From: Fistulifera solaris
Taxonomy: Eukaryota
Assembly (NCBI GenBank): GCA_030295235.1
Contig: AP026142.1
Location: forward strand, 62,001 to 126,000
Reading direction: 5' to 3'
Length of the DNA: 64,000 nucleotides
The position numbers were made by a program, and so were the translations under genes. The first letter of the stretch is position 1, and each line of letters begins with the position of its first letter. Below, piece by piece: positions 27,623 through 56,032 of the stretch. The notes under the pieces were generated by a model. That model ran no database searches. It was given only the letters and a program-made list of their open reading frames with translations, and was not told the origin of the DNA.

Positions 27623-27747
27623 GAAAGCCTGCGTATCAACGACGTGTTTTGTGGGAGTCTTTCACGCTTTCACGTTTATTTGAAGAAACGCCACGTCAAT
27701 TTGCAGTCAATTTGCAGCATAGTCTCCCAAAATGACGCAAAACAAAC
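27623..27747 (+). repeat. BTB-associated module copy 1
   Basis: GAAAGCCTGCG...GAAACGCCACGT (27685)...AGTCTCCCAAAATGACGC; contains a short internal duplication of GTCAATTTGCA. Confidence 0.85.
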
Positions 27748-27749
27748 GC

Positions 27750-27986
27750 ATACCGCCCGTCGTCAACATTGTCGCTTTGAAAGACGAGTTTATGTACTAC
27801 GGGATCTCGGCGAATTGGGATAAATCGATTGTCAAGAATGTCGCCGATGATGACATGAAGGTTCAGAGCACTAGCGGCACCATCATCAAGTCATTCACTT
27901 TGGCTATGATTGGATGGAAGGTGGTCGGACTATTCGCAATCATGTATCGGAATTTCAATTCTGCTCGGGTGCTTCACAACAAGTAA
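27750..27986 (+). pseudogene. 5'-truncated BTB gene fragment
   Basis: IPPVVNIVALKDEFMYYGISA matches the end of the family BTB domain (e.g. LPSTVNIEAVKEEFEFYGIDA). Confidence 0.7.
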
Positions 27987-28253
27987 TAAGTCGCTGGTGT
28001 GTGTGGATCGGAGCAATTGACATTCGTCGTAGACGTAACGTGAATAGAAAATGTGATTGAATGTCGTCGTAGACGGAACACAGCACTCATTTTCGCCATT
28101 GGTATCCAGTTGTGTTTAACGCATTCATTTAGATTGTTTTATTGCGTGCTGATGAATGTTGAAAGCTGGATGGATTAGACATTGCACGGGACTCAGCTGC
28201 ATTTTGGTCGAGTGAGAAGGAGGCGTCCGTCGTCTCAAACTTTCCTCGGTGAT

Positions 28254-28462
28254 GCGGTACACATTAATTACGTCACTCACAGGGTGTATACAAGAAGAAG
28301 TAAACGAAAAGGAAAGCGTCCGTCTCATCGCGTCAGTTTGTGTGAGGCTTTCTCATTTTCAACGTTTTCAAGGAAACGCCACGTAAAATGAGACGAAAGT
28401 CTCCCAAAATGACGCAAAAGCTGAGAAAACTTGGACACCATGTGAGACAACGCCACGCGAGC
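28254..28462 (+). repeat. BTB-associated module copy 2 (palindrome 28330-28415)
   Basis: GCGGTAC...GCGTCAGTTTGTGTGAGGCTTTCTCATTTT...GAAACGCCACGTAAAATGAGACGAAAGTCTCCCAAAATGACGC...GGACAC...GCCACGCGAGC. Confidence 0.9.
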
Positions 28463-29514
28463 GCGAAAATTCATGCCACATGTCACATGTGACATGTTAG
28501 AGCCAAGTGACAACTCTCATTATTATCGCGAAACAAGCTACTACTACGAAATACTATGAGTTGTGCGTTAAAGGATTGGTTTGCGAGATGCCATTCACTT
28601 CACCAGTCTACGTGGATATCGACAGATCAACATAGGATGTGAAAGAAAGGTTGAGTCCTTTATTGTTCGGACTTTTATCTGAAACTCTCTTGCGTTCTAG
28701 AAAATAGGTATCCTGTGCATTCTCTCTCTGTGGCGAGAACGGCTCGACGAAACCCTTTTTGATACCCATGGATTTGGACCGTTGATGACATCTTACGACA
28801 GCATAGTCTGCCTTTCCGCTTCTCTTTGCAATAATGACACAATTTATTTCTCGTCCGCACCGTAAACGAGAATGGCGATCAATGATGCCCGAAATATGAT
28901 CTCCGGAACCAGGTGCTGTATGCGGATGGCTCTCGCCGTTAAGTGGCTCTAAGTCATTTTATGTCATCTAGTGTGCCTGTATTTGGTGGAGCGTTCTACT
29001 ACCAGCGTGCTTTTGAATTCGGGAGTTGTTTGTTTTGTTACCTTTACCATTATCAGTGGATGGTTACGTTGAGCAGCAGACGCAAAAGGGCACAAAAGTT
29101 AGGCGGTCTGAATCGGTTTAAAGTAAAAGTAATAGCATAACATCCCACCATTAAACGAATGATATTGAAAAAGCCGTTGAATGAATCATCAAGAACACCA
29201 TCACAACTGATCTAGGAAAACGCTTTCGAAAACCCTATCTGGAGTCTCTAGTCTCTAGAGAGGTCGATCACCATGTGCCCGTGCGGCTGCAGTACAAAAC
29301 ACACGTGACCTGTCAATTGCATCCCACGTCACGGACCAACTCGAAGAACAAGACCAACAGATGCTGTCGTGCCAAAAACTCCACCCCCGCGTGTCGTGCG
29401 CCTTTTCGCCGCAGGGTAGTGAGCGCACCTCTTCATCGCTTTTTGCTCACCCTGCCTTTCACGAACCCTGTCGCATTCGAATTGATATATTATAAACATT
29501 CTTAAAGCAACAAC

Positions 29515-30180
29515 ATGACCATAATGAGTTGTCAGGAGAGAGGCAAAATTGTTCGACTGAACGTAGGAGGTACTCGATACGATGTCTCGCGCACTACACT
29601 CGAACGTTGCGAAGGATCGATGCTGAACAGCTTGATTTCGGAATACTGGAAAGAAGGCAATTCCGATGAACCGATTTTCATTGATCGCAATGGTCGTTTG
29701 TTCGAATATGTGCTGGATTATTTACGAACGGCCAAAGTGTATTTGCCATCTTCCGTCAGTTTACTCGCCTTGGAAGAAGAATTCGATTTTTACGGATTGG
29801 ATGTAGATATGACCAAAGTGCACTGCATGGATGCCAGCATGGGTTCGTTGAATGCATTGTACGAAAGTCATTACTTGTTGGGACTCGCGGATCAAATATC
29901 GGCCGAAGCCTACACGACCGCGGCCCGGCGGGCCGTCGAAAAGAGTTTACGGAAAAGTGACATTGCGCCCAAACCCTCCCGCGAAATACCCTTCTTTATT
30001 CTGGTGGAATGTTACAAGCGCAATCCGACACCGGGGGCATCGTTTTGTGTTTACATCCCCGAAGAATATCAGCCCCATATGGATACCGATTTGGTGAACA
30101 ATATTTTGACCAATCGGGGCTTTGAAATTGTGAATTCAGCCTTTAAGCACTTCTTGTACATTAAGAAGGTTTCTGAATGA
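29515..30180 (+). CDS. KCTD-type BTB/POZ protein
   Basis: VRLNVGGTRYDVSRTTL, FIDRNGRLFEYVLDYLR, EEFDFYGL; C-terminal ILTNRGF. Confidence 0.9.
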   Translation: MTIMSCQERGKIVRLNVGGTRYDVSRTTLERCEGSMLNSLISEYWKEGNSDEPIFIDRNGRLFEYVLDYLRTAKVYLPSSVSLLALEEEFDFYGLDVDMTKVHCMDASMGSLNALYESHYLLGLADQISAEAYTTAARRAVEKSLRKSDIAPKPSREIPFFILVECYKRNPTPGASFCVYIPEEYQPHMDTDLVNNILTNRGFEIVNSAFKHFLYIKKVSE

Positions 30181-30797
30181 TGAAAAGTCTGGTAGGGGAA
30201 GAGTTGGCACAAGAGTTAAAAAAAATGAAGAGGGCGGCGCTAAAGCTGCGGTAGCACGCATCTTTGTCATTTGAATCGCAGTTCAGATCGTGAATCTATT
30301 CTCGATCTGTGAAGGAAGTGATGGTGGCATGTCGTCCATTGGGACGTACAATAAGTTTTCCGTGTGTATATAGAAGGAACTTATCTACAAAGGCGCCTTT
30401 TATCTGATGTTACTTGAAAAGTTCACCCTAGCAAAACATTCGTGTTGCCATCATTCATAGCTACTTTGGGTCGTGCGTCCTGCGTCATAAAGGACGTGAC
30501 GTCTATCCAGCGAATTGTACGCGGGAGAGGGACCGTTTCGTGGGTTAAACAACCGGTCATCGGTCATTTTTTTCGAAAATGGGTTTTTATTGCGGCTAAA
30601 TTATTCTGACGTTTTCAAACACGATTAAATAATGAAATTGTCTTATCGCTCTTCATCAATTCCTTCTTCATAAATTATTCAGCGAGGAGTCGATCTAGCC
30701 CGCAAAAGAATCATCAAAGTCCTTGCCTTCCAACAATTGCTCTCCTCTCCGGTCGGTACCGTTCCCTGCCACAACTCCTTAGGCTTTTCATCGCGAT

Positions 30798-31493
30798 ATG
30801 ATTTGTCTAAATGTGGGAGGCATTCGCTATCAAGTCTCTCGTGAGACATTAACGCGATACGAAGGATCCTTACTTGCCACTTACGCCAACAGTTGGAATG
30901 AGAATACATTCAACCAAGAGATTTTTATTTTCCGCGACGGGCATTTATTTGCTTACGTCTTGGATTATCTGCAATCCGGAAAAGTTCATTGGCCTTCGTC
31001 AGTCATTCAAATGAAGCTAAAACAGGAACTGGATTACTATGGAATTCCGGTGGATGCGAGCAAAATTGTGGAAGAAAAGGACTACTTTATTATTGATCGA
31101 TTGACGAAAGAGATCAAAGAACACAAGGCTGCTATCGAAGAAAAGGAGAGACAAGTAGTTGCGATCGTGGAGTCGTATCGTCTGACGCATCAGTATGCAG
31201 AAATCGTCTCAAAGAGCAGCGGTAATGGTTTTTCTACACACTCGTTCCCTGTGACGGGAAATTTTGACAAGAAATTGCTGCAGGAAAGCTTGCTTTCCCG
31301 CGGACTCGATGCCTACTTTTATCAGAACGCGAAGCAGGGAGCAAAGGTTATACTAGGTCCTATTACAGAAGAGGATAAGAGAATCTATGGCGAGAAACGC
31401 ACCGGCTTTCAGTTTACATTTCATGACAACACAACGACACCCCTTGCTTCCGCAGCCATCAGACGTCGGATCGTGAGATCGAAGAAGCGCTAA
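30798..31493 (+). CDS. KCTD-type BTB/POZ protein with coiled coil
   Basis: CLNVGGIRYQVSRETL, FRDGHLFAYVLDYL; close paralog of 32191; in-frame TAG just upstream removes the N-terminal extension. Confidence 0.88.
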   Translation: MICLNVGGIRYQVSRETLTRYEGSLLATYANSWNENTFNQEIFIFRDGHLFAYVLDYLQSGKVHWPSSVIQMKLKQELDYYGIPVDASKIVEEKDYFIIDRLTKEIKEHKAAIEEKERQVVAIVESYRLTHQYAEIVSKSSGNGFSTHSFPVTGNFDKKLLQESLLSRGLDAYFYQNAKQGAKVILGPITEEDKRIYGEKRTGFQFTFHDNTTTPLASAAIRRRIVRSKKR

Positions 31494-31830
31494 TTTTAAG
31501 CCTTAGGTCGAGTCTCAATTGTTGGTCTCTTACACGTCTTACCTGGTAGCTCTTAGCTAGAAAACAAAAAGATAACGAGCGAATTTTCGCTAGCGTGTCG
31601 AACCTTGAAGGCGCGGCACTCAACGTCAATGCAGCTGTTTAGCGGTAATCAGCTTCATTTCATCTTAGAATAATCAAGGTTGGGTATTTTGAAATATAGC
31701 TACTTTATAATGAAAATTCAAGCTTGCTAGTTAGTCTATAAACCTCAGTTTTTTCCTTTACACTCCTCGTGACTCATGAACGACCGTCAATCACGCAAAG
31801 AAATGAGGAAAGGAAAAACTGTTGCGTCAA

Positions 31831-31990
31831 GCGGTACTCATCAAGAGGCAGTATACTATAAACTGTCTCCAATTCAAGAAAGCCTGCGTGTATTTCAAGT
31901 CATTTTGTGTGACGCTTTCTCGCTTTCGACGTTTTCGAAGAAACGCCACGTAAAATGGAGGAAAGGCTCGCAAAATGACACGCGAAAAGC
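31831..31990 (+). repeat. BTB-associated module copy 3 (palindrome 31899-31979)
   Basis: GCGGTACTC...GAAAGCCTGCG...GTCATTTTG...GAAACGCCACGTAAAATGG...CAAAATGAC. Confidence 0.88.
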
Positions 31991-32190
31991 GAAAGACGTG
32001 ACAAAATGGCGGACAAGAGAGACGAAATTTGGGTCACGCAAGCAATGCAACAAAACCAAAAGGCCTCTCATCCTTCACGTCAATAATAATTCATTCTATG
32101 ATTGTTGCTTTTGCTTGAACATTCAGTTGATCCGTTGCTCAATCAAAATATATTGACATTCATTTACTGACCTTTTCGCATGTATTAACC

Positions 32191-33036
32191 ATGGCAGATG
32201 CTCGCATCAAGAAAACACGATTGTCGTTGGACGATGACCTCAATGAAGACTTCGAAAACCTCACTGTCGAAGAAACAAAGGACGACACAAAAGTATATTC
32301 TTTCACATTCGGGGAAAAGAAGGAAGCAAAGGATGACCAGCCTCCTCCCACGAACACTCCGACGGCTTTTAATCGCGATATAATTTGCTTGAATGTTGGA
32401 GGAATCCGTTATGAAGTCTCTCGAACGACGATGACGCAATACGAAGGATCCGTTTTAGCTAGTCTCGCCAAGACGTGGAACGAAGAAAAAATTAACAGTG
32501 AGATCTTTGTGTTCCGTGACGGGCCTTTGTTTGCTTACGTTTTGGATTATCTGCGATCGGACAAAGTGTACTTACCGTATTCGATTACGCGGGCTGCGCT
32601 ACAAGAAGAATTCGATCACTTTCAGATTCCTGCGGACATGGGAAAGGTTTATGTCGAAAAAGATTACTTTACTATTGATCGACTGACGAAAGAGATCAAA
32701 GAACACAAGGAAGCTATTGAAGAGAAGGAGAGGGCTGTCTCCGCCATCATTGAATCCTATCGTCTTGCGCACAATCTTACGGCCTCTGTCATGAAACACG
32801 GATTTGATTGGTCCCAGGTGGTGACACCTAGCTTTACTGTCACCCCGGGCATCGACAAGAAACTATTGCGCGATTGTTTGTTGGTGCAAGGAGTCGAAGT
32901 GTATGGGTACCGAATGGAAAATTTTGAAGCGCGCATTTCATTGGGGCCCATTCAAGAAGATGACGGAGGAACTCCCTGCAAAGGTGCTTACCGTCAGACG
33001 GCCACTGGATCGCCATTTCGCTTTTTTGATCCATAA
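32191..33036 (+). CDS. KCTD-type BTB/POZ protein with coiled coil
   Basis: CLNVGGIRYEVSRTTM, FRDGPLFAYVLDYLR, IDKKLLRDCLLVQG. Confidence 0.9.
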   Translation: MADARIKKTRLSLDDDLNEDFENLTVEETKDDTKVYSFTFGEKKEAKDDQPPPTNTPTAFNRDIICLNVGGIRYEVSRTTMTQYEGSVLASLAKTWNEEKINSEIFVFRDGPLFAYVLDYLRSDKVYLPYSITRAALQEEFDHFQIPADMGKVYVEKDYFTIDRLTKEIKEHKEAIEEKERAVSAIIESYRLAHNLTASVMKHGFDWSQVVTPSFTVTPGIDKKLLRDCLLVQGVEVYGYRMENFEARISLGPIQEDDGGTPCKGAYRQTATGSPFRFFDP

Positions 33037-33774
33037 ATGTGAGAAATTGGAGCCCTGAAACACAGGACATCTTTTTCTTCAAACTTCATGTAGCATTCCG
33101 ACTATGGGACCAAATCGTAGACGGAACTTACAAGGACAACCTCGACTGCTCTCCGTCATGAATCTAGAATGTAAGAGTAATAGGATCGTGCAATAGCAGC
33201 AGTTTTCCTCGATCATTTTTATACGACTACTTTAGCAAGTTGATCAACGCACACGTCGATCTTATCATCAAGTAAGAGTTTTCTCAGCTAGCGTGGCTAA
33301 CTTGGCGTCAGAAACTGACGTCACAGATTGATCATAGTCACCATAATCCCACACGCTCTGTGACTACTACGTACAACAAGGATTTTGACGTGAAACGCAA
33401 AAAGACATTATTCGCTTATAATTGCGTTGCTGCGAACGTCGAAAGCGACGACACAAAGTGTTTCGTAATTATCGCAATAATAGGCTTTTTCTTGAGAGTG
33501 TGACTACGACTGCTTCTCTGTTTCGCGGCGGAGTCTTCATTGAAGACAAACGGATACATAAGCGAGTCCGGTTTTCTCAAACAGAGGGACGGCTTTCGCG
33601 TGAGTTCAGCGTTTCCATTTGCCACAACAGCTCTCCATTTCTCATCTGTAATTATTCGTGTAAAACAGTCGATAACTTAAATACTCGGCAAAACTCAAGA
33701 ACGATTTTGAGAAGCATTTTGTATCATAAACTTTTACTGATAATCATTCAGAGCAAGAAAGAATCACCAGCAAC

Positions 33775-34509
33775 ATGACAATGACCGCAAATGAAACTCT
33801 TTTTTCAGAACAAGCTACTGAGATTCCTTCCGCTACAGCAAGCGAAACCAAGAGCCAGTCGAATGATACACCGAAAGCCAAGCCGACAACTCCACGCTGT
33901 GCTAGCTCGCGAGGAATCGTCCGTCTAAACGTAGGAGGCTCCCGCTACGAAGTTTCCCGCAACACTTTGACGCGTTACGAAGGATCCATGCTGGCCAGTC
34001 TTATTTCCGGCAAATGGAAGGAAGGAGAAGGCGATGAAGAAATCTTTATCGATCGCGACGGCCGTCGCTTCGGGTACATCTTGGAATATTTGCGTTCTGA
34101 CCGTGTGCATCTACCGCACTTGTCGGCCCGGTCTGCCTTGATGGAAGAGTTTGAGTATTTCGGAATTGATGCCGACGAGAGCAAGATTCTCGTCCAGCAC
34201 GACTTTATGTGTATCGATCAACTCAAGAAAGAAATCATCGTTCACCAAGCTGCCATCGCCGAGAAGGAAAGGGAAGTGGCAGCCATTTTGGAATCCTACC
34301 GCATGGCCAAGGAATTTTCCGAGTACGTCAAAACATGGGGATTGAATCTCATGATGCAGATTTCAGTCCAGAAAACTGTCGATCGAGAGATGCTTCGTGA
34401 ATGCTTGCTATCGCGGGGACTCAAGGTGGAGAACTACAATGTGAAAGAAGATGGAACAGTCATTGCCCATCTTGTTTCGCTGGGTATGTCTAGTCGTGCC
34501 AATAAGTAG
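33775..34509 (+). CDS. KCTD-type BTB/POZ protein with coiled coil
   Basis: VRLNVGGSRYEVSRNTL, FIDRDGRRFGYILEYLR, VDREMLRECLLSRG. Confidence 0.9.
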   Translation: MTMTANETLFSEQATEIPSATASETKSQSNDTPKAKPTTPRCASSRGIVRLNVGGSRYEVSRNTLTRYEGSMLASLISGKWKEGEGDEEIFIDRDGRRFGYILEYLRSDRVHLPHLSARSALMEEFEYFGIDADESKILVQHDFMCIDQLKKEIIVHQAAIAEKEREVAAILESYRMAKEFSEYVKTWGLNLMMQISVQKTVDREMLRECLLSRGLKVENYNVKEDGTVIAHLVSLGMSSRANK

Positions 34510-34874
34510 CCGCATAAAGAATGTGTTTCAATAAAAGACTACTTTGCAAACAGAGACTCGACGGTCGCTTCTCGTCAACGCCTTTCTTTCAATTAATCAA
34601 AGTGTGGATCGCATAAATGAGGGCAAAGGTTTTGCTTATCCTTATCCCATAGAATCGGCTTAGTGTTGCGATCTGAAGCAGCAAGACACTCGAGAATGAC
34701 GAAAAGTTTTATAAAAAAACGATACGATATGATGTTTCTCACAACACCCTCGAACGCTGGGAGGGCACGATGCTGGCATGCATGATTTCGGAACCTTCGC
34801 GAGATCGCTTCTCCGAAAAACGAATAAACCTGTCCTTCGAAAATGGTGGTGACTCGCTTGAGTAAGACAACGCA

Positions 34875-35115
34875 CCCATTTCATTGATCGCAATGGATTA
34901 CTGTTTCAGTACGTCCTCGATTATTTCACAGTGAAGTTTACTTGCCATCGATTGTGAGTCAAGAGATGCTGTTGTGAAGGAGTTCGATTTTTATGCAATC
35001 GATTGACCTGAGCAGTAGATTGTTTTGAGTATGTTCTTGAGTATCTGAGATCAAATGAGGTCTACTTGCCGTCCTCTGTAGACCGATCCGCTGTGGAAAA
35101 AGAATTTGCGTTTTA
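34875..35115 (+). pseudogene. Two adjacent BTB fragments
   Basis: FIDRNGLLFQYVLDY...EFDFYAI followed by FEYVLEYLRSNEVYLPSSVDRSAVEKEFAF; frames broken. Confidence 0.75.
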
Positions 35116-35415
35116 AATAACATTCATGGAAAAGCTCGGTCCAAAGTTTGTTCAATACCTTGTCTCGAAAATTGCATCCACAAAAAGAGACATGCACTTG
35201 CTCATGGCCAAACAAACTTGCCACTGAAACAGCAACTTTTGTTGAATTCATTTTCATTTATTACACGGAGTAATAATAGCTCTATCCATTTGTCGTAAAA
35301 GGACGCATTTACAGCTGCAAGGTGCGGGAAAAGCCCCCGTAGAGAAATGTACCAAGCAGAGGTGCGTTCCCGTGTCTCCCAGTTGTTGTCGACCGCGCCC
35401 ATTGTGGAGGGCAAA

Positions 35416-35640
35416 GCGGTACTCATTGATTACGCCACACACGTGTTCTATACAGGGAAAAGTGGGCAAAAGGAACGCCCCCGTCTCATCGCGTCAATTT
35501 GTGTGAGACTTTCTCATTTTCGACGTTTTCAAAGAAACGCCACGTACAATGGGACGAAAGTCTCTCAAAATGACGCCGCAAACAAACGAGAACTCGGACA
35601 CCATGAGGCAACACCACGCGAGCTCTCTCGTCCGCATGTC
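35416..35640 (+). repeat. BTB-associated module copy 4 (palindrome 35491-35576)
   Basis: GCGTCAATTTGTGTGAGACTTTC...GAAACGCCACGT...GAAAGTCTCTCAAAATGACGC; extended similarity to copies 2 and 8. Confidence 0.9.
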
Positions 35641-36400
35641 CGTATAAGTATGTGACAGAAACAGAATGCCATGTTATCGTGATGGTGAGGCACAAACATG
35701 CTTTCAATGCATTATAAAGCAAGTTCCTGAGCAGCGAGACGAGGCCTCCGCTCCATCACGTTATCTCTGCAATGTCAACCTATCAAAAAGTGGGTTGAAG
35801 TTCGGCAATGCTTCCCTTCGCTGCATTGTAAACATAAACCATCACGAAAGCTTCCGCCGAGTGTTTCTATCATCACACCTCCACAAAAGACTCGCTTATC
35901 ATCTGTGCGTGAATAGAGCAAAGATCGTATGCTACATCAAAACGACTGTGTGAACGCCGTATAAACCTAACAATCCGACGCCTCTTCTAATATGGCATCC
36001 TCGAAATCATCATTCAATAGCGACTTCTTTATAATACACGCGACGACTACTGAACGTTCCATATCGCCATCAAGCGGAAAAAACAAGCTGCAACCAGCAA
36101 AACTGCGGCAATGAATCACGTGACATTGAGAAAGTTTGCGCGTTTTTCTACACAAGTCGTCGCACGAATCGTATCTTACCATTCTTCCGTGATGTTCCGA
36201 AGCGCTATAAGTGTCACAAATCTTTCCTCGTCACGAAAAGTACAGTCCGCGGTATTCGCCACTTTCAAATGCGGAGGTGACTTGGAACGGTTCGCAATAA
36301 AGAAACAACTCGGATTATTTTTTTTGTTTCACCGAGCGCAACAAGATTCCTGGCATTATTACTTGCAACGTGCTCTCGCAATACGAATCTCTCCTTAACA

Positions 36401-37024
36401 ATGACGACGGAAGAAACCAAACCCACAATTGTTCAGCTCGATGTGGGAGGCACGCTTTACAAAGTATCACGTGACACAATCGAGCGTTGCGAGGGATCCA
36501 TGCTGGCCAGTTTAATATCTGATCAATGGAAAGAAGGCAATACCGACGAACCGATTTTTATTGACCGCAATGGTCGTTTGTTTGAGCATGTTCTGGACTA
36601 TTTGCGCGCGAGCAAAGTGTATTTGCCTTCGACGGTGAACATCGAGGCCGTGAAAGAGGAGTTTGAGTTTTATGGGATCGATGCCGACATGGGGGAAGTT
36701 CACGAAAAGTACGGTCACAAGTATTTACATGAGCTCAATGAAAGGATTCGTGTCCAAGAAGAGAGCTTGTACGCGTTAAAGGCGGAAGCCCATGCGATTC
36801 AGGCTTCGATGATGGTGGAACATGAATTTTTCAAAGAACATGAGACTCCCTACATTCCAATTCCCGAAGAATATCGACCAAAGCGTCACACGCGGTGCAT
36901 TGATTTGCCGGAAGAGTATAGACCGTTTGACAAAGAAACGCTGCGAACTTGCCTGCAACAGAGAGGTTTTAAACTGAATCGAGCGGATCGAGACTATGTT
37001 TCAGTTGAGGATATGGAAAGCTAG
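36401..37024 (+). CDS. KCTD-type BTB/POZ protein with coiled coil
   Basis: VQLDVGGTLYKVSRDTI, FIDRNGRLFEHVLDYLR; duplicated PEEYRP; FDKETLRTCLQQRG. Confidence 0.9.
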   Translation: MTTEETKPTIVQLDVGGTLYKVSRDTIERCEGSMLASLISDQWKEGNTDEPIFIDRNGRLFEHVLDYLRASKVYLPSTVNIEAVKEEFEFYGIDADMGEVHEKYGHKYLHELNERIRVQEESLYALKAEAHAIQASMMVEHEFFKEHETPYIPIPEEYRPKRHTRCIDLPEEYRPFDKETLRTCLQQRGFKLNRADRDYVSVEDMES

Positions 37025-37229
37025 TAAGCAAGCAAACAAGCAAGCAAAGTAATACCAAAACGCTTATTCACTTCCTATTGTCACTTGTAGAACTACAAGA
37101 TTCCCATTTGCGTTAAGTCGATGGTCGATATCTGTTCTATTTCCTTGAAACGCAGGTATGACAAAAAGCTGGATCTGACTGAATGTATTTTATCAGAATA
37201 AAATCAATCGAAGCGTTTATCGTAAGTTG

Positions 37230-37300
37230 CGCTTGAACTCTTTGGTAGCCGAATTACTTCGTGATTGTTTGCTATCTCGCGGCGTGCAGGAATCGGCTAG
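37230..37300 (+). pseudogene. Isolated C-terminal fragment of a BTB-family gene
   Basis: AELLRDCLLSRGV matches the family C-terminal motif. Confidence 0.6.
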
Positions 37301-37563
37301 GCGGATAGTTGATATCTGTGTCACCGGGTTAGAAGACCAATACCTGGTACGCCTCAGAGAGCTCTTAGACTCTACTGTTTTCAATCAGAAAGTCAGAACT
37401 ACTGTTCATGATGAGTTAAGCGCTCTCATTTCTTAAGTCATAGTTTCTAGGAATATTTCAAAATACACACCTTTACGTCTAGGTCGAGTTTTATGGCCGA
37501 TTTGGTCGCGACTGAACAGATCATGAGTACCAGGTAGCTTGGCTGACGTCAATCACACTCACC

Positions 37564-44034: not shown

Positions 44035-45851
44035 GATGGTGTCGTTGTGAGAGAAAAAGGAAAGTGTTTCATTCTGTTATACGAATGTAGACCCGTAAAA
44101 GCCCTCGATCTGTGTTTCTCATGTTTGTTGTTGGAGACGAAAATAACATTAAATAATGCGGAGAGTGCGGAGGAATGTGTGTTGGTTTCGCATTTAGGAT
44201 GCTGGCACGCCGGCAGGGCTGCCGGCTTATTTATTACTATGGAAGAGAAAGCAGGAGAAATGGATTCAGAATTAAATGAGTTAAATTCTGCCTCCAAGAT
44301 CCAACAACTCCGAATGCAGAATATTGAGTACCGGTACACTCCCAACGCAGTCAAGTCCATTGAATGGATCTTTTCATTCCCGAATGGAAATAAGATACGG
44401 CACTCAAGATCCTCTTCATTGAGACGTTTTCGACACGATACCAGTAAGCAAGTTAATTGCTATGTGCGGATTGCGGATGCACCATGACAGCCATTCAATT
44501 TATATGGTGCACGCCATGATTGAATAGGAGAGACCTGGTAATCAGAAGGGACCGTGAAAAGTGGACCGCCCGAAAGGAACGAAAGTCCACGGGCGCTTTT
44601 CATGTTTGCAATTATCATATTTATGTATATGTGTAGACCGAATGGGTGATTATCATGGATGAACTCTTCGGCAGTTTGCAAAATAGGGATTGAATTTTAT
44701 TTAATCATCGGGTGTGACATGCTATAACAATTTTGATTCTTAACGCCTACGTAGCGAACCAAATACGATTGCGACAATGTTAGCATTTCTCATTACCTGG
44801 TCTCATCATCGGTGTCACGAAGTTCACCATCATTACAGTGATGATCTTGATTCCATCGACAATGACGAGGCATTGTCAACCATCTCCTTTTCTATCTTCA
44901 TAGCAAATGTTCCATTCTTCACTACCATTAACAATCTACGAAGATGTTCAATAGCTTTGCCGTTGGAGTTGCGCTTGCTTTTATGTCAGTCCAAACATGA
45001 ATTGATCCACTGCTTCAAGTGCATGGTTTGTGAATTGTGAATTCACCTTGTCGACGCGTCATTGGAATAATGAAAGCCAAAATTTCAACGGCGAATCAAA
45101 ATTGGATACGAGCGGAATCGGGTTCTTGTGTTGTGAGAAGAAAAAAGAACCCCTGGGGCAACATAACAAGCCAAAGGTCTAACCAAAGATCATAACACCA
45201 GAAACCAAGGTTGACACATGCGACGATACCCTAGTCGAAGATGTGAAGCATGCGTTAAGAGACGAACCCAATACGGGGACGCATACACTGAAACGTGGAA
45301 TCGAGGTTATGCCTGTCCGGAATCACGAACAGCTCCTCTATGCTAAAAGCGTCTGAATGCCCGTGATCTTCAATTCTGCAACAATCTTACGCGGCATGAT
45401 GACGTCAAACTAGGGATTGATTTACTACTACTAGAACAAAAAACGTTTCAAGCCAAGCGGAAATGCCGCGTTTGCGTAATTTCGTATGGGGCCTTTCCTT
45501 CTTTGAAACAACAATTAATCACTAATATTTGTTCCTAATTTCCTAAAGTCAGAATGTAATTTTGACATTCGACTGAAATTTCCAATTTTTGTTTTTTTTG
45601 TCACAAATATATTAATCTGGCACTTCGCTGACGTGTCGAAAGGAAAGGCCACGCCAATTGTACTCCGTTATGGAAAGCCTTCGCTTGCTCGCATAATTTT
45701 GTGCGTGGCTTAGTTCTTGGTTCGAGAAAGGCCACGCGATTGGCGTAACACGGCAACTGTGACTGCCACGTTACCCGATGTTGTGTGTCACGTGAAACGT
45801 CACTTAGATCGCGCAGAAAGAAGTCAACCGGTACTCGAAAGTGTTTATCAG

Positions 45852-46336
45852 TGTTAAAATCTCCGCGGTCTTCTGTCTTCTTCTCTCTCACCACCGGAAC
45901 TCGATCCCTGGTGAGACGCTCTATGAAACCTAACTTGTTCCAAACTCTCTGTCTACAGATTATAATCTAAAACTAAACTCTCTTGTTCGACGCAATCCTC
46001 CAACAATCCTGGTAATTAGTCCTCTCAAATAATTTCCCCTGACCTTCTACTATATTGCCGTCAATCCTAGTCAATCCCATCTCCTTAGAAAATCCGTATC
46101 CTCCATAAGCCATCACCTCCGAAATCTCCACATTCGGACTGATGCTCCAATTATTCCAATCCTTCATGCGACCTGGGAAAACCTCCGTTCCACGATTCCC
46201 TACAGAGTAAAACCCAGTCGCCCCACTTCACCTCCGCAATCACCCGCGACATCTTTTGTGCGTCCGGCTGTGCTCACGTCATCTTTGCACCAGTCCGACA
46301 CACCATCATGTCGCATAGGGGCGTCATGCTTTGACA
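45852..46336 (-). repeat. 3' LTR (485 bp)
   Basis: Differs from the 5' LTR only by three single-base indels in C/G runs. Confidence 0.97.
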
Positions 46337-49300
46337 TCCTCCCTGTCGGCTGCCAAGATGGCTCTAATGAACTCTCTCATTAGTCCCTCACGCACAATGG
46401 GAGCCAACCTATCATGAACCTTCTCCGTCCACGTTCTTGGTCGCAATATCTGCAATGTTGTTCTCTGACTTGACAAACTTAACAACCAATCTCGGGTCCA
46501 TGTTTCCTTCCTTCGACATCATCTCTCTGATATGATGCATCCTGATATCAATGTGCTTAGTTCTGTTGCCAACCACTTGGTTCTCCATAAGGAAGATCGC
46601 TGCCGGTGTTATCTTCAAGCAACACACCCGGCCGAGTCAACTCCTTTGGAAACAACTCCTCAAACAACATCTGCAGAAACTTGATATCCGTTGCACGTAG
46701 ACGCCGCATAATACTCTGCTTCAGTGCTGGACAAAGTCACTGACGGCTGCAACTTGCTCGAAAACACGCAAAGTCCACCGCCCACCGTAACAAAAAAATC
46801 CAGTCACACTCTTTCTCGTCTCTTTATTCGTAGCAAAGTTCGAATCCACCCAGGCATATACCTTTAGGTTTAACGGCTCTCGCAACTTCAAGTGCACGTC
46901 AGTACTTGCCAAATAGCCTACCAAACGCTTCATGGCCTTCCAATGCTCCTTCCCAGGCTTATCCATGAACATTGCCAACTCGCGCGTCGCGTTGCTACAC
47001 TCTGGTGCTACCTTTCTGACCATCCACATGATGCGACCCAGAAACTTCCTGTACACTTCGAGGTCAATCGGTTCGTCTTCACTCTTAACCAGTGACTCAT
47101 TTGGATAACCGGGCGTCTTCTCCACTTTCAACTCGCCGTACAGTGCCTTCCAGTCTTTGACAATCGCCTTCTTGTAGTCATCCATCCTTACTTCATAATA
47201 CTCTCCTGCAGCATCGCACTTTCGCTCGTACCAAACTCCAAGATGCTTCTTGATTGGTCCCAACTCAGCGATATTGAACCGTTTCTTGATCTGGGTCTTG
47301 AACCACTCCACTTGTTCTTTTGGCCCAGCCACAATGCAGTCATCAACATAAACCACAATGATCAAAACAGTCTCCCCATTCTCTTCTTTGTACCAAACAC
47401 ACGGATCTGCTGCGCACTGCTTGAGTCCCAGTTTCTCCAACTCGCTGCCATACAGCAAATAGTACTGTCGAGGCGACTGAACCAGACCGTACATCGCTCT
47501 ATCCAACAATATCACATACTCGCGTGCTTCTTCCTCTGTGATGTAGCCAAATTCAACCAATCCATAAGGCCACTCCAGGTACACTTCTTCATCAAGACCC
47601 GCTTCCAAAAATGCCGGCTTCAACATCTATCAACTCGGCAATCCACTTGTCCTTTCTCTTATACAACACAACCAATAGGACCATTCGAACCGAAGTGTCC
47701 GAGGCCACTGGTGAGTGCGACAAGTTGAAATCCACGCCAGGAATCTGCACAAAACCTCGTGCAGGCGCGTGCCTTGAACCTTAAGCCCGTGACTTCATTC
47801 TTCTTCTTGAAAATCCACTTGAGCTCACAGGTTTTCTCCCTTTTGCTTTCATCTTCTTGCGTAGCTCTTTCTTCCAAGCCTTTCTCTTCAAGAAGTTCTC
47901 TATCTCCTTCATCAAAGCTGCCTTCCACTCAACAGCTTCCTTTCCACTCAATGCTTCCTTTACGGTTTCGGGTTCCCCCGGATCTGACATCAGCTCTGCA
48001 TTCAACACAAACTGCTTTGCATCATCGATCCCTCCACCCACATACTGATCATTCTTCAAGTCTTCAAAATTCATGCTCAGGATCATGTTGACCGCTTCAT
48101 TAAAAGCTTCTTCACCATCGGGGTTCGCTACATTGTATGACGTCCGGCCGTGCCAGCTCACGCACCAATCTTCCTCGCCGAGTCGCTACTGGAGCACTAT
48201 CCTTCGCACTTTCTGTCTCTTCGGCGACTTCCGGCTCCACATACTCTTTCCTCCCTGCTTCAGTAGGGACCTGAGCGACTTCCTCCCCAATCTGATCATC
48301 CGTGGTGTCGATGTCCATATCGGTGGCAAACATCCTTAACTCTTTCAGCGACCGAACCACTCGATCCGTGCCAGTCTGCCCATGTGACATCACGCTGAAG
48401 AACCACCGTCTCCGACTCAGGCTTGAACACCCGATCATTATCACCCGAATGAAGGTCTGCATATCCAACCATGACCACCTGCACCGATTTCTTCGACAGC
48501 TTTGGCTGCTGGTCTCGAATAGTCATGTATCCAACTCGACCCCATTGCACCAAGTGCTGCAAGAAGTTTGGCTGACTGCCATACCACAAGAGATCCGGAC
48601 TCTCTTTCATGTTCCGGTTCGGCACAGCATTATCCAACCTTGTGGCAGAGTTCACCGCTTCAGGCCACAACTTCCCTTGGTGCTCATCAGTGAGCTTTGC
48701 CGCCAGCATCATAGCCACGGCCTTGTCTCGAATCGTCACAAACTTCCTTTCTGCAACGCCATTCATCTCGCGGTGTGCGAGCGGTAAATTCCATAGTAAT
48801 TCCTTTCTTTTCACACATTTCTTTCATCTTGTCGTTTCGCCTGCATTGTCACATCGAACGAACTTGACCTCCACACCACAACCACTCAGCTTATCAAGGA
48901 ACTTCTCCATCACATCCTTGATCTTCGACTTCTTGTCAACAAAGAAACTCCATGCCTTGCGCGTTAAATCATCCACCACCAGGATCCAATACGAGTTCTT
49001 CGCCAACGACATTTTGTACGGGCCACTTGTATCCACAAACAAGCTCGCCTTTCTTTGTCGCCTTCACAAGCGTTGATTTGCACACTGCCTTTGCTTTCGC
49101 TTCGCGTATGCACAAGCCTCACACGTTTTCTTCTCTCCCGTGAGCACGATACCAAGCTGCTTCGACACCTCCTTCAATGGAGTATTGCTTGCATGTCCGT
49201 ATTTCTCGTGCGCCCTCGTTGATATCCAGTTTCGACGTACTTTCCACCGCATCGACACCTTCACTGACTGGCGTCGCCTCTAAGTAGTAAAGCGTCCCGT

Positions 49301-50578
49301 TCCTCCTTGGGATCTTAACAGAATGCTTTCCACTGGCATCCGTAATTGTCATAACACCATTTGACATCTCAATCTTATTGCCTTGTTTTTCCAACGAGCC
49401 GGTACTGATAATGTTCTTCGCAAACGTGGGTGCCACTCGAACATTTAGTAGCTTCACTAACCCACTCTCAGTACGCAACGTCAATGTCCCAGACTTGACT
49501 GTCGTCACCTCCTTTCCGTTTCCGACAATCAACACATCTCTTTTATCTTGGACATCGGTCAACATCGTCTCATCAACAACAACGTGACACGTCGCACCAC
49601 TGTCGAGCAAAAACTTTTCTTCCGTTCCAGTCGACCCAACAAATTTTCCTTCGCCTTGATTGACTTCACAGCAAAAACTCATTCCAACGAACATTCCCAA
49701 GTCTTTCTTGTCATCATCTTTCTTGTCTGTTTTATCAGGACATTCATTTGCCTTGTGGCCTTCCTTGCCACAGTTGTAACAGACCAACTTTTTCTCTTTC
49801 TTGCACTCAAATGCCTTGTGGCCGATCTCGCCACAGTTTCGACAACGTCCCTTGAACTTCTTCTTTGCTCCTTTCTTCTTGTTGCCGCCGTTTTCCACAT
49901 TCAATGCATGGTTTTTCTCTTTCTTTTCAGCTTCCTCGTCATGGGCTTGAAATCACGCTTCCATTTGTTTCGAATTTCTTCCTCGATTGCGAACACGTCG
50001 TAGTCGGCGAGTTTTCCACTCAACTTTGTCAGCAAATCGCCGTACTCCTTTGGTAAGTTTCCGGTGTAATGCGCCTTCAACTCAACTTCCGACTTCCGAT
50101 GTTCTCTCCCAATAGCCGCCAGCCTGTTGTTCAATCGATCCGTTTCCATGAACCACTTGTCAGGATCGTCTTCTTTCTTTGCCAACTTGCAACGACTGAA
50201 CGCAGCCAACGCCTCCGCCAAATCCTCTTCCGAGTTTCTTGCATACTTCCGATCGAGATACTTGAATGCCAATCTTGCATCCCCATCAGCTCTCATCACC
50301 AACCCGAAGCGGAACTTCCTCGCGACGCGATCACAAGCTGCTCAAACACCTCCTGATTGTGCTTGACCAACAACTTGTTCTCCTTCGATACTTTCTCCGC
50401 TTCCATCTCTTCCTTGGTCGGGATCTTGACCATCACATTTTCGATCACATCCGCCCAACCTCGTTTTCTTGAAGTACGCCATCGTCTTGTAACGCCAACC
50501 ATCGTAACCCGTGTCAGCGATCTTGTCGTTCAACGGATAGTAACGCAAAGTAGCAATCTTATCACCTTCGTCACTCAT
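46324..50578 (-). CDS. Copia gag-pol polyprotein (many frameshifts)
   Basis: Two CCHC knuckles (CRNCGEIGHKAFEC, CYNCGKEGHKANEC), protease LLDSGATCH, integrase VDTSG/RCDNAGE/NGVAER, RT YVDD, RNase H ADIATK. Confidence 0.93.
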
Positions 50579-50648
50579 CTTTCTTCGTAGCTTCTAGCTG
50601 CTTGCTTCTAGCCCTTTTGGTTAACACTTAACACCACGCTTTAAAGCG

Positions 50649-51130
50649 TGTTAAAATCTCCGCGGTCTTCTGTCTTCTTCTCTCTCACCACCGGAACTCG
50701 ATCCCTGGTGAGACGCTCTATGAAACCTAACTTGTTCCAAACTCTCTGTCTACAGATTATAATCTAAAACTAAACTCTCTTGTTCGACGCAATCCTCCAA
50801 CAATCCTGGTAATTAGTCCTCTCAAATAATTTCCCCTGACCTTCTACTATATTGCCGTCAATCCTAGTCAATCCCATCTCCTTAGAAAATCCGTATCCTC
50901 CATAAGCCATCACCTCCGAAATCTCCACATTCGGACTGATGCTCCAATTATTCCAATCCTTCATGCGACCTGGGAAAACCTCCGTTCCACGATTCCCTAC
51001 AGAGTAAAACCCAGTCGCCCACTTCACCTCCGCAATCACCCGCGACATCTTTTGTGCGTCCGCTGTGCTCACGTCATCTTTGCACCAGTCCGACACACCA
51101 TCATGTCGCATAGGGCGTCATGCTTTGACA
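50649..51130 (-). repeat. 5' LTR (482 bp)
   Basis: Direct repeat of 45852-46336. Confidence 0.97.
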
Positions 51131-51136
51131 TATCAG

Positions 51137-51310
51137 CACTAATTGTACCCATAAGGCTGCATACTACGTATCATCAACGTGTTTTGTAAAAGTCTTTCTC
51201 GATTATGACGTTTGGAAAGAAACGCCACGCAAATGTCGGAAGACAGTCACCCAAAATAATGACATTCGAAAGGAAAGAAACGATGATGGCAAAAGAGAAA
51301 CGCCACGTTA
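51137..51310 (+). repeat. BTB-associated module copy 7 (5' part apparently separated by the copia insertion)
   Basis: TGTACCC, AAGGCTGC, GAAACGCCACGC (51219), CCAAAATAATGAC, second GAAACGCCACGT (51297); CGGTACTC lies at 45829. Confidence 0.75.
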
Positions 51311-51737
51311 TCGCGGTACCAGTATCGGTATCGCGGTATCGCTGCTCGCAAAAGCTTATACTGTAAACAACCATGGTTGAGGCGAGCATTTTCACGGACT
51401 GAGCATTCATAATGATGTGAAATTATGCAGATTTGTGATAAGCATCTGCCACGAGAAAGGTGCTACGTTGCATTGTACTACCTCTATAGCACTTTCGTTA
51501 AAGAATAGGCCCGGTGAAAAGTGGATAGGGCAAGTTATAACGTCAAAATTGATCGCGGCGTTACGTTCTGCGCCGCTTTTCAAATTTTTTACCAATCGTG
51601 GGACGCTGTCGGAAACCATCCTCGACGAGCGACGAGACGGTTTTTAAACAACCTGTTCGCTGCTCATATGGACTCACTATTTTGGCAAACAACCTTATTA
51701 ATCACCCCGCTTCATTTCTCCTTTGTCTTCTTGAACG

Positions 51738-52457
51738 ATGACGGACGGTGTTTCACTTGTTCAGCAAGGTAACACCCTTAAAACCGACGCTCAGAAGCAA
51801 GCCGATGAGTTTGCTTCATCATCTACGACGAAACCACGAGTCAACGCACGGACCGATATCGTTCATTTGAATGTAGGAGGTACACGCTATGAAGTATCGC
51901 GAAGCACTTTGATGCACTACGAAGGATCGATGCTGGCCAGTCTTATTTCCGGCAAATGGAAAGAAGGAGAGGGCGATGTAGAAATCTTTATCGATCGCAA
52001 TGGTCGGCGTTTTGAATGGGTATTGGACTACTTACGATCGGATCGAGCCTATGTGCCCGATCTATCGGATCAATTGGCACTCAAAGAGGAGCTGGATTAT
52101 TTTGGTATCGCTGTCGATATGAGCAAAGTCTCCGTGACGGACGACTTTGTGACGATCAACGAGCTTAGTCAAGAGATCAAGGTACACAAAGCAACTATTG
52201 CGCAAAAAGAAAAGAGAATAGCCGCCATCAAGGAGTCGTACCGTTTGGCCGGTGAATTTGCTGATTACTCGGAAAATGAAAAGCTGAAAGTTCGTTTGAG
52301 TGTCAACAAGGACGTCGATACAAAGATGCTCCGTCGCTGCTTGTTATCTCGTGGATTGCACGTTCTACGATCCGGTAGCAAAGAATCCGGTGCGCCAACA
52401 TTATATTTATGCGTTGCCGGACAAAAAAGTAAATGTGTCACCAAGCTTACAAAGTAA
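51738..52457 (+). CDS. KCTD-type BTB/POZ protein with coiled coil
   Basis: VHLNVGGTRYEVSRSTL, FIDRNGRRFEWVLDYLR, VDTKMLRRCLLSRG. Confidence 0.9.
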   Translation: MTDGVSLVQQGNTLKTDAQKQADEFASSSTTKPRVNARTDIVHLNVGGTRYEVSRSTLMHYEGSMLASLISGKWKEGEGDVEIFIDRNGRRFEWVLDYLRSDRAYVPDLSDQLALKEELDYFGIAVDMSKVSVTDDFVTINELSQEIKVHKATIAQKEKRIAAIKESYRLAGEFADYSENEKLKVRLSVNKDVDTKMLRRCLLSRGLHVLRSGSKESGAPTLYLCVAGQKSKCVTKLTK

Positions 52458-52747
52458 AATCGACTTTTTTGCACGCAATATTGTGCCAGGTCAGCTTCTG
52501 CATTCTCCAAGACAAAGACACATCTGTAAGGCGTTTACTCCTGATGTAATCTTTGTATGATCTTCCGATTTGGGTAAGAAAATTCACGTCAAACCCCGTA
52601 TTCATCAGACAGCGAATCTCTGTTTGTCTCCGTGTTTCTATTAGTATGAAATTATTGATGATATGAAACTTAGAATTTGCGTTTTAATAATAGCCACTGT
52701 AGCAATTCGTGACAAACAAGGTTGAAACACAGATTTCTCCCAAAAAA

Positions 52748-52956
52748 GGTACTCGTTCCTTCAATTTGTCTGTATAGTACGTTTTCGGTATAACTGAGGA
52801 AAGGTTGCGTATTATTAACGTGTTTCGTGTGAAAACTTTCTCGTTTTTCGAGGTTTTCAAGGAAACGCCACGTAAAATGGGACGAAAGTCTTCCAAATAC
52901 AAACGAGAACTCGGACACTGTGAGAAAATGCCACGTGAGCCCTATCCGCATGTGAC
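52748..52956 (+). repeat. BTB-associated module copy 8
   Basis: GGTACTC...GAAAGGTTGCG...GGAAACGCCACGTAAAATGGGACGAAAGTC...ACAAACGAGAACTCGGACAC...GCCACGTGAGC. Confidence 0.88.
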
Positions 52957-55976: not shown

Positions 55977-56032
55977 CCTTCTAAAGAAGTAAAAAAGCGT
56001 TTGTTGCAGTCATTCTAACTAAAACAGACACA

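Follow-up and report, generated by a model that had tools for sequence, protein, structure and literature searches.

A module repeated in front of BTB_2 genes

Within the 64-kb stretch of Fistulifera-type diatom DNA analysed here (the window), open reading frames (ORFs) and tblastn define a tandem array of BTB_2 genes on the plus strand at 29515..40264. It comprises g1 (29515-30180), g2 (30798-31493), g3 (32191-33036), g4 (33775-34509), a BTB pseudogene (34722-35212), g5 (36401-37024), g6 (38172-38795) and g7 (39635-40264). Another BTB_2 gene identified in the same way, g8, lies further along the same strand (51738..52457), and all 10 BTB genes of the window are on the plus strand. The Pfam scan within the span 29515..40264 took in g3 and g5, and both matched PF02214.

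A sequence-only reading of this DNA had claimed that a palindromic non-coding module occurs in at least eight same-strand copies in front of BTB genes. We built an nhmmer profile from the eight reported copies and scanned it over the 64-kb window. It recovered exactly those eight as strong matches, all on the plus strand between 27.6 and 53.0 kb (E = 2e-45 to 1.5e-34), a result that is expected by construction because the profile was made from the same copies. An independent degenerate pattern composed of the core and the right arm matched six of the eight, as compared to no match in each of 100 shuffles. Apart from the eight copies and one decayed half copy, the profile gave no further match in the 64 kb; in agreement with the earlier reading it found none in the first 27 kb, and the approximately 40 kb of the window outside the array, which hold many other genes, contained no copy.

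Six copies are found 5′ of an intact BTB_2 gene, at 245-1136 nt from its ATG. Copy c2 (28254..28493; nhmmer match 28283-28482) spans GCGGTAC to CATGTGAC and lies 1.1 kb 5′ of g1. Copies c3 (31831..32047; match 31853-32022), c4 (35416..35656; match 35442-35640), c5 (37532..37740; match 37532-37721, 113.8 bits) and c6 (39007..39226; match 39021-39210) precede g3 (ATG 32191), g5 (ATG 36401), g6 (ATG 38172) and g7 (ATG 39635), respectively, while the main part of c7 (51134..51340; match 51134-51327) precedes g8 (ATG 51738). Copy c1 (27604..27794, 115.7 bits) has a truncated BTB ORF directly behind it (27732-27986), which carries ALKDEFMYYGISANWDKS and resembles the end of a BTB domain, and a divergent DUF3605 gene on its other side. 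The proposal that every copy lies 5′ of a BTB gene or fragment thus stands for seven of the eight and fails for c8 (52746..52956; match 52774-52953), whose right-arm end is deleted. We looked for a BTB remnant behind c8 and found none; an F-box gene (53830-54555) follows instead. The window's two F-box genes are alike only from 27 nt before the ATG, and c8 therefore lies outside the F-box duplication unit. Four intact BTB genes (ATG 21889, 30798, 33775 and 63580) and the pseudogene at 34722-35212 have no module.

The decayed copy (45643..45800, plus strand; nhmmer match 45654-45737, E = 2.8e-5) was also detected by position-weight-matrix matches. It carries GAAAGGCCACGC at 45643 and 45726 together with relics of blocks 3-5, and there is no gene behind it. 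It corresponds to one of two weaker copies suggested previously (~45643/45725); at the other position, ~53573, there is only the 12-mer AAAATGCCACGT, on which the profile is silent. All nine copies, including the decayed one, share the orientation of the genes. Some of the copies are adjacent in pairs (c1/c2, and the copy at 45.65 kb with c7). Within c7 lies a Copia-type LTR retrotransposon on the minus strand (45851..51131, RVT_2 match), with the first block of the module, CCGGTACTCG, at about 45829-45838 beyond the insertion. This retrotransposon is young; its LTRs (487 nt) are 99.4% identical, and (T)ATCAG flanks it on both sides.

Contigs from runs X2-X4 have RNA-like properties, namely a poly-A end, a splice-type joint (GT..AG) and cover of the ORFs that is patchy. 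Their cover extends from 32056, 9 nt past c3, from 35739, 83 nt past c4 (TATAAAG lies in the gap, at 35713), and from 39363, 137 nt past c6, across the ATGs of g3, g5 and g7, respectively. The transcribed sequence known so far thus sets in shortly behind each of these three modules. The distance from c2 to the first RNA-covered base of g1 is at least 900 nt. The module-less g2 and g4 are also covered by RNA-like contigs, and the module is therefore dispensable for expression of this BTB family.

Motif content and conservation

In the alignment of the copies the blocks follow the order reported earlier: CGGTACT, GAAAGCCTGCG, left arm, ACGTTTTC..GAAACG, CCACGTAAAATG, right arm, GGACAC and a second GCCACG. 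The order itself was borne out, although the outer blocks are present in merely five to six of the eight copies; c5, the most diverged, lacks the left arm. Of about 98 columns, 25 are invariant, and in the core GAAAnGCCACG 10 of 11 consecutive columns are invariant across all eight copies. We checked the module for coding potential and it had none. The conserved bases, approximately 95 in a contiguous run, are more closely packed than short factor sites in their usual clusters.

Each module carries the core word GAAA(C)GCCACG(T) as two direct repeats spaced by 63-105 nt, always on the plus strand. Within the modules GCCACG was found 12 times on the plus strand and never on the minus strand, as compared to 13 and 11 times in the remaining ~62 kb. 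A matrix derived from the core scored a second site of at least 10 bits in six of the eight modules (2.95 per kb versus 0.24 per kb outside). TGACGY, counted on both strands, reached 8.4 per kb in the modules and 1.08 per kb outside, an enrichment of about 8-fold. It occurs on both strands in five of the eight copies, at partly differing positions, on a single strand in c6 and c7, and not at all in c8, whose second site is a full CACGTG.

Duplication of the linked BTB genes is old, and their synonymous sites are saturated. The paralogs share 27-58% amino-acid identity and 27-46% third-codon identity; for 22 of the 36 pairs NG86 gives no defined dS, the others lie at 1.8-4.4, and dN is 0.24-0.86. 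On the other hand, the Jukes-Cantor (JC) distance of the module core is 0.46 at the median and spans 0.15-0.73, and the mean pairwise identity in the best 30-, 60- and 96-nt windows is 83, 79 and 75% for the module versus 70, 65 and 66% for coding sequence. The core is far better conserved than the synonymous, and even the non-synonymous, sites of the linked genes, which supports functional constraint, one of the two general possibilities (the other being recent mobility) that the sequence-only reading had offered. Its observation that the rest of the intergenic DNA does not align was also correct: outside the module, no part of one intergenic region aligns with another.

Members of both deep clades in the gene tree carry the module (support for the clade of g2, g3, g4, g6, g8 and g9 is 100/99). 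The module tree is star-like with zero supported branches, and a module tree matching the gene tree was not rejected by the AU test (p = 0.21). Similarity between modules did not track similarity between the linked proteins (Mantel r = 0.06; 303 of 720 permutations as high).

Repeat spread, RNA structure and recombination

Could the modules be alike through youth and not through selection? They may stem from a repeat whose spread or homogenisation came later than the divergence of the genes, either as a palindromic foldback or MITE-like element, perhaps later co-opted as a promoter, or through gene conversion among members of the array. We consider this unlikely, though several observations point to it. 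The consensus forms a palindrome (pairing in 75.6% of cells, versus 39-56% when the partners are slid), five copies have a sharp 5′ edge at GCGGTAC, and the star-like module tree is uncorrelated with protein divergence. One copy, c8, has no BTB gene, and copies stand in adjacent pairs. By our own estimate, 25 invariant columns of about 98 are roughly what neutral star decay of ~17% per lineage would leave. Copies c2 and c4 are ~92% alike over 95 nt with a sharp 5′ edge, despite a saturated dS of 2.1 between g1 and g5, and later copying between these two modules would explain their likeness as well as constraint.

However, the differences between c2 and c4 are evenly spread, without a long identical tract, and homogeneous decay does not predict the 10 of 11 invariant columns of the core motif. 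A MITE or SINE, as suggested earlier, is not supported by what is found in the window. At either candidate boundary the flank repeats reach 2-3 nt at most, the most frequent value among 2000 random placements, and there are no target-site duplications. Conserved blocks flank the arms on both sides, and the outer ends (GCGGTAC.../...ATGTGAC) are not inverted repeats. Moreover, nine of nine copies have the orientation of the genes, and the other ~40 kb of the window, although gene-rich, is free of copies.

It could also be speculated that the module is transcribed as a structured RNA, either a 5′-leader hairpin in BTB transcripts or the product of a gene for a small non-coding RNA. The palindrome arms measure 16-21 nt. 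The 86-nt imperfect hairpins bounded by GCGTCA and TGACGC that had been described in c2 (28330-28415) and c4 (35491-35576) are real, as is the perfect GTCATTTTG/CAAAATGAC pair of c3. Both hairpins are much more stable than shuffles, with fold z scores of -4.8 (c2) and -4.0 (c4) on the plus strand and -3.7 and -3.4 on the minus strand. In addition, the known 5′ UTR of g3 extends to 9 nt from c3, and transcription could thus include part of a module. Nevertheless, this explanation is very improbable. The hairpin does not form in six of the eight copies, where z ranges from -2.65 (a different fold) to +0.4 (c5). The covariation check that had been called for, run on the eight-copy alignment, gave nothing above shuffles: 75.6% of cells are paired versus 76.2% in shuffled alignments (397 of 500 shuffles as high), the covariation score is 0.110 versus 0.118, and just three pairs have changed on both sides. 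There was no Rfam match at gathering thresholds in the window, nor at E up to 1 for c4, and the module tolerates 1-nt and 11-nt indels as well as a right-arm deletion.

A DNA-level recombination or replication site, for instance a hotspot of unequal crossing-over between array units or an element resembling an origin, is the least credible of these explanations: the module is the sole homology between array units, two copies have long palindromes, and a published ‘centromere/ARS’ motif of the species (45528-45610) adjoins the decayed copy, but that motif does not share the module sequence, features specific for such a site are absent, the palindrome is lost in most copies, and a strand-specific conserved 12-mer that occurs twice per copy suits a sequence-specific factor better.

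A candidate promoter module and its relatives

Among the candidates put forward from the sequence, a bZIP-type enhancer or promoter fits best, given the strand bias of GCCACG and the enrichment of TGACGY. The module has the appearance of a common promoter control region rather than that of a folded RNA or a mobile element. With a probability of about 0.55, we take it to be a promoter-proximal cis-regulatory module with ACGT-core (bZIP/bHLH-type) sites that is kept by selection; that proteins bind it, which factor does so and that it acts as a promoter are what we infer.

On this promoter interpretation, a module of ~190-240 nt would have been duplicated along with the BTB_2 genes during growth of the tandem array, and purifying selection would have held it while the remaining intergenic DNA and a large part of the coding sequence diverged. 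The working parts would be DNA sites read by proteins: the near-invariant 11-12-mer GAAA(C)GCCACG(T), TGACGC/GCGTCA sites at the ends of the palindromic arms, whose positions turn over among copies, and T/A-rich GAAA/TTTC blocks. At least one bZIP- or bHLH-type factor may bind these sites and elicit a common transcriptional response of the module-bearing paralogs. The palindromic shape would then be a property of the consensus, reflecting mirrored binding sites or a relic of its origin, and no RNA or DNA fold would be maintained. Several observations run counter to the promoter interpretation: c8 lies ahead of an F-box gene, c1 has the divergent DUF3605 gene on its other side, intact BTB genes and a pseudogene lack the module, c2 is far from the RNA-covered part of g1, the conserved bases are unusually dense, module and protein similarity are unrelated, the module tree is star-like, and copying between c2 and c4 would account for their likeness equally well.

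Our literature search found no description of such an element in any diatom. Plant bZIP and bHLH factors bind G-box/ABRE-type ACGT-core elements (ACGTGGC). Read on the opposite strand, the invariant GCCACGT becomes ACGTGGC, which we take to be such a core, and the second site of c8 contains CACGTG. In contrast to a G-box, the module word is longer, has a fixed GAAA 5′ extension and is strictly strand-specific with respect to the gene. Like MITEs and foldbacks, the module is short (86-240 nt), non-coding and multicopy, has palindromic arms and lies near genes; unlike them, it has no target-site duplications, is conserved past its arms, has outer ends that are not inverted repeats and, within the window, is single-oriented and confined to the array of one gene family.

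The passages of PMC11142338 that treat Phaeodactylum tricornutum promoters describe CO2/cAMP-responsive TGACGT/C elements in PtCA1, PtCA2 and PtBST1, arranged as a ‘tandem invert repeat’ in PtCA1 and PtBST1, with TGACGT/C being the target of PtbZIP11 (citing Ohno et al. 2012). As far as these elements are described there, the module resembles them in having TGACG(C/T) on both strands as an inverted repeat a few hundred bases 5′ of a diatom gene, with GCGTCA...TGACGC forming the arm ends in c2 and c4. On the other hand, its best-conserved element is GAAACGCCACGT and not TGACGY, which is absent from c8 and one-stranded in c6 and c7, and its genes encode BTB adaptors and not carbon-concentrating components. 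Paralogous conserved non-coding sequences retained after duplication have been reported in Arabidopsis (PMC4906602) and vertebrates (PMC3595034). As such sequences are described there, the module is similar in lying 5′ of paralogs and in being alignable where its neutral surroundings no longer are, and it differs in exceeding the best coding part in conservation and in belonging to a tandem array and not to whole-genome duplicates.

Copies of the module in the BTB array

The window is nuclear DNA from F. solaris or a diatom very near to it: two of its proteins, uS5/S2e and one BTB protein, cluster at 90% identity with named F. solaris proteins. The ten BTB_2 (PF02214) genes of the window all lie on the + strand, with start codons at 21889 (g0), 29515 (g1), 30798 (g2), 32191 (g3), 33775 (g4), 36401 (g5), 38172 (g6), 39635 (g7), 51738 (g8) and 63580 (g9). 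The window further contains a BTB pseudogene (34722-35212), F-box genes at 53830 and 56033 and, at 45851-51131, an LTR retrotransposon of Copia type with an RVT_2 match and its ORFs on the minus strand.

We built a profile from the eight reported copies of the module, a non-coding repeat in front of these genes, and scanned the full 64 kb. The eight were recovered, by construction, on the + strand at 27604-27794 (c1), 28283-28482 (c2), 31853-32022 (c3), 35442-35640 (c4), 37532-37721 (c5), 39021-39210 (c6), 51134-51327 (c7) and 52774-52953 (c8). A weak match on the same strand marked a decayed half copy at 45654-45737, and the scan gave no further matches, in agreement with the sequence-only reading that the first 27 kb holds none. 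As an independent check, a degenerate pattern of the core (the densely conserved centre) and the right palindromic arm matched six of the eight copies and nothing in each of 100 shuffles. The eight same-strand copies are thus real, and their alignment displays the order of blocks originally described. The additional weak copy suspected near 53573 is just a 12-mer.

In full, the unit extends from GCGGTACT to CATGTGAC over about 210-240 nt, with the densely conserved ~95 nt at its centre. When 13 upstream regions were compared all-against-all by BLASTN, the module was the sole common intergenic sequence (71-87% identity over 37-211 nt), the exceptions being a 26-nt match of 96% inside the module and the retrotransposon LTR; the remaining intergenic DNA does not align, as had been judged by eye. 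Every copy is on the gene strand, and seven of the eight lie upstream of a BTB gene or of a truncated BTB ORF (27732-27986, directly after c1, its first ~75 codons missing). The proposal that each copy precedes a BTB gene or fragment therefore holds for these seven and not for c8, which is followed by an F-box gene with no BTB remnant behind it. Profile scan and BLASTN found no module at g0, g2, g4, g9 or the pseudogene.

The copy in front of g8, c7, is split by the LTR retrotransposon, whose LTRs (487 nt, 99.4% identical) are flanked by (T)ATCAG. Its first block (CCGGTACTCG) lies near 45830 and the remainder beyond the insertion, so that the promoter region of g8 is now interrupted by 5.3 kb. 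About 240 nt before the LTR, between relics of the decayed copy, positions 45528-45610 match almost exactly the F. solaris ‘centromere/ARS’ motif 1 and the reverse complement of motif 3, as the consensus motifs are printed in the accessible part of a preprint (10.1101/2021.11.10.468027). This stretch looks like a short dispersed repeat.

Several other features of the locus were recorded. A stretch of ~45 nt at 35334-35380, 60 nt before c4, has a depth of ~896 in the DNA sequencing run X1 against ~20 in its neighbours, shows loose ends at either side, and is a short sequence of very high copy number. At 38579-38591 the reading frame of g6 shifts at an A-run, and an X1 contig has one extra A at 38584; either a homopolymer error or a frameshifted g6 allele may therefore be present in the window. 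Eight further single-base indels separate the window from X1, six of them an extra A. Just upstream of g9, which has no module, a 315-aa ORF on the minus strand (61612-62559) had no Pfam match; its ...HSLRKGAATYL... stretch presumably recalls tyrosine recombinases.

Conservation relative to the genes, and possible later copying

The BTB paralogs are old, with identities of 27-58% for amino acids, 41-63% for CDS nucleotides and 27-46% for third codon positions. By NG86, no dS could be defined for 22 of 36 pairs, and the others gave 1.8-4.4; dN was 0.24-0.86. JC distances between module cores, on the other hand, spanned 0.15-0.73 (median 0.46). The refuting condition named in the sequence-only reading, that the module is conserved no better than synonymous sites of the linked genes, clearly fails against this saturated dS. 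Among the six copies linked to genes, the best module windows of 30, 60 and 96 nt averaged 83, 79 and 75% pairwise identity, compared to 70, 65 and 66% for the best BTB-domain coding windows. The non-coding module has therefore been kept better than the best-kept part of the proteins.

The F-box genes served as a calibration. They are a tandem duplicate (53803-54977 and 56006-57181; 80.5% identical over 1194 nt). Their similarity begins 27 nt ahead of the ATG and ends ~420 nt beyond the stop, and their upstream regions are unrelated. This young pair is still 80.5% alike through the 420 nt of 3' flank, while neutral DNA around the BTB genes is alignable nowhere. These data indicate sequence constraint above the neutral rate, provided that modules and genes are of the same age, a condition not rejected by an AU test. 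One clade of the gene tree is strongly supported (g2, g3, g4, g6, g8 and g9; 100/99); modules occur on both sides of the split, and the module data do not reject a split matching it (AU p 0.21). Co-inheritance of modules with genes is thus no more than compatible with the trees.

The competing explanation sees in the module a repeat whose spread or homogenisation came later; it may stem from a palindromic transposon and may have been co-opted. The star-like, unresolved module tree speaks for such later copying, and so do the lack of correlation between module and protein similarity in a Mantel test, the sharp 5' edge of the module, and the cores of c2 and c4, which are ~92% identical even though dS between their genes, g1 and g5, is saturated. 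The features of a mobile element that were looked for within the window, however, are missing. The arms are internal, with conserved blocks outside them on both sides, and the outer ends (GCGGTAC and ATGTGAC) are not complementary. The best flank repeats at three inner and five outer boundaries were 2-3 nt, the mode of 2000 random placements, and so gave no sign of target-site duplications. Within the 64 kb every one of the nine copies sits in the BTB array, on the same strand. The MITE proposed in the sequence-only reading does not survive these observations within the window, and we regard spread or homogenisation as unlikely, if still worth weighing. Were the module a repeat dispersed genome-wide, the finding would be an ordinary transposon relic. 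X1 depth over the modules was flat at ~20, a figure for matches of at least 95% that is uninformative on diverged copies elsewhere.

In public collections we searched for GAAAMGCCACGYMMA followed, after a gap of 15-32, by ARAATGAC. These scans demand exact pattern matches and would miss diverged relatives; they gave 11 single matches in metagenome contigs, eight in genome contigs (bacterial records) and none in viral contigs, against a chance expectation, by our own rough estimate, of ~9-15 per large collection. Beyond the pattern itself, none of the 11 metagenome matches fits the module profile, nor is any accompanied by a BTB gene.

Coding potential and RNA structure

The module is not coding: in six-frame translation, stops interrupt c1 and c6 and the frame changes in c5 and c6, and the core contains indels of 1 and 11 nt. 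A peptide-like FTWRF(F/L)ENVE recurs on the minus strand, but its frame is broken in c1, c5 and c6.

A structured RNA was another candidate. The 86-nt hairpin that had been described from the sequence in c2 and c4 is very stable, with z scores of -4.8 and -4.0 on the + strand and -3.7 and -3.4 on the minus strand. The remaining six copies lack it, their z ranging from -2.65 (a different fold) to +0.4. When the c2 structure was placed on the eight-copy alignment, 75.6% of cells paired, compared to 39-56% with slid partners; shuffling the 3' letters among copies gave 76.2%, and 397 of 500 shuffles were as high as the observed value. The covariation score was 0.110 against 0.118 in shuffles. Pairing above slid partners but not above among-copy shuffles shows that the consensus is palindromic and that deviations break pairs without compensation. 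Rfam gave no matches at gathering score over the window and none at E up to 1 over c4. With a stable fold in two of eight copies and no covariation, a structured RNA is very unlikely. To a recombination or replication site, the former also among the first candidates, we give hardly any credence.

A putative promoter-proximal module

To place the modules relative to transcripts, X1 and three runs that behave as RNA (X2-X4) were mapped over 27000-46000. The latter read as RNA by a poly-A end at 33201, a GT..AG joint at 33599-33669 and patchy cover over ORFs. The first of these marks the 3' end of g3; the joint, present in contigs of two of the runs, is a 69-nt intron in the 5' region of g4. RNA-like contigs cross the ATG of g3 from 32056 (9 nt behind c3), that of g5 from 35739 (83 nt behind c4) and that of g7 from 39363 (137 nt behind c6). 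Between c4 and the start of cover of g5 there is a TATAAAG at 35713. Cover of g1 begins at 29427, more than 900 nt behind c2. Among the X2-X4 contigs listed and in binned depth, c1, c2 and c5 had no cover, which does not amount to silence because contigs cannot show starts or absence. The cover thus places the modules next to transcription starts and, for the same reason, not certainly upstream of them.

The most constant part of the module is GAAAnGCCACG, in which 10 of 11 consecutive columns are invariant in all eight copies. Six of the eight modules have a second word of this type 63-105 nt downstream (score of at least 10 bits), and the decayed copy has three to four core-type words. The density of core words scoring at least 10 bits is 2.95 per kb in modules and 0.24 per kb outside. 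In the modules all 12 occurrences of GCCACG are on the + strand, versus 13 on the + and 11 on the minus strand elsewhere in the window. We take ACGTGGC, the reverse complement of GCCACGT, to be a G-box/ABRE-type ACGT core. TGACGY is ~8-fold enriched in modules, in a count whose c7 span included 31 nt of LTR. It occurs on both strands in c1 to c5, on one strand in c6 and c7 and not in c8, at partly different positions, which looks like turnover of factor sites. Judged by their sequence, GAAACGCCACGT and TGACGC are candidate sites for bZIP/bHLH proteins.

Other motif readings by eye were rejected. For HSF (TTCnnGAA) and STAT-like (TTCnnnGAA) sites in the module centre, TTCnnnGAA is present in four of eight copies only, and TABASTA is found in two. 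The TABASTA promoter motif is that of Nomaguchi et al. (PMC5935921), in whose supplementary tables CCACG, ACGTG, TGACG and BTB are all absent.

Among the first candidates a bZIP-type enhancer or promoter appears to fit best, given the strand-specific ACGT-core word and the enrichment of TGACGY. At a probability of roughly 0.55, we favour a promoter-proximal cis-regulatory module whose sites have an ACGT core, and which was passed on along with the BTB genes and has been maintained by selection. It would then count among the conserved promoter modules of paralogous families, and would stand out by its length and by a conservation above that of its own genes. To our knowledge, very few cis-regulatory modules have been defined in diatoms. 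This one is long, sharply bounded, repeated eightfold at a single locus, and conserved above the level of the genes that it precedes. Eight conserved copies at one locus provide ready-made natural variants for reporter and factor-binding tests: with or without arms, with one or two core sites, split by a retrotransposon, or decayed. Of these, c5 lacks the left arm and c8 the end of the right one. F. solaris is transformable and oil-producing. The module could also throw light on the co-regulation of a tandem family of ubiquitin-ligase adaptors, and on the escape of some paralogs from that control. No earlier description of the module was found in the accessible parts of the literature on Fistulifera promoters, diatom BTB genes and diatom MITEs, PMC5935921 and the preprint of the assembly included.

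A more specific proposal takes the module for a rigid, enhanceosome-like control cassette of one cullin-adaptor (BTB/KCTD-type) family, older than the deepest split of that family and kept tighter than its proteins, which may have originated from a palindromic mobile element. Module-bearing paralogs might then be switched together, for example in a life-cycle stage, by analogy with the pennate diatom Seminavis, for which the accessible part of one study reports reproduction-biased BTB/POZ families (PMC7335047). Taken jointly, these claims are quite unlikely; if true, they would offer a rare and directly testable pair of a factor and a long cis-module in a diatom.

A comparable system is known in Phaeodactylum, where the accessible text of a published report (PMC11142338) names PtbZIP11 as the factor that targets TGACGT/C and describes the CO2-responsive PtCA1 and PtBST1 promoters as carrying this site in an inverted tandem repeat. 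With this PtbZIP11/CCRE element the modules agree in part: TGACG(T/C) stands on both strands of the putative promoter in five of the eight, and on one strand or neither in the other three.
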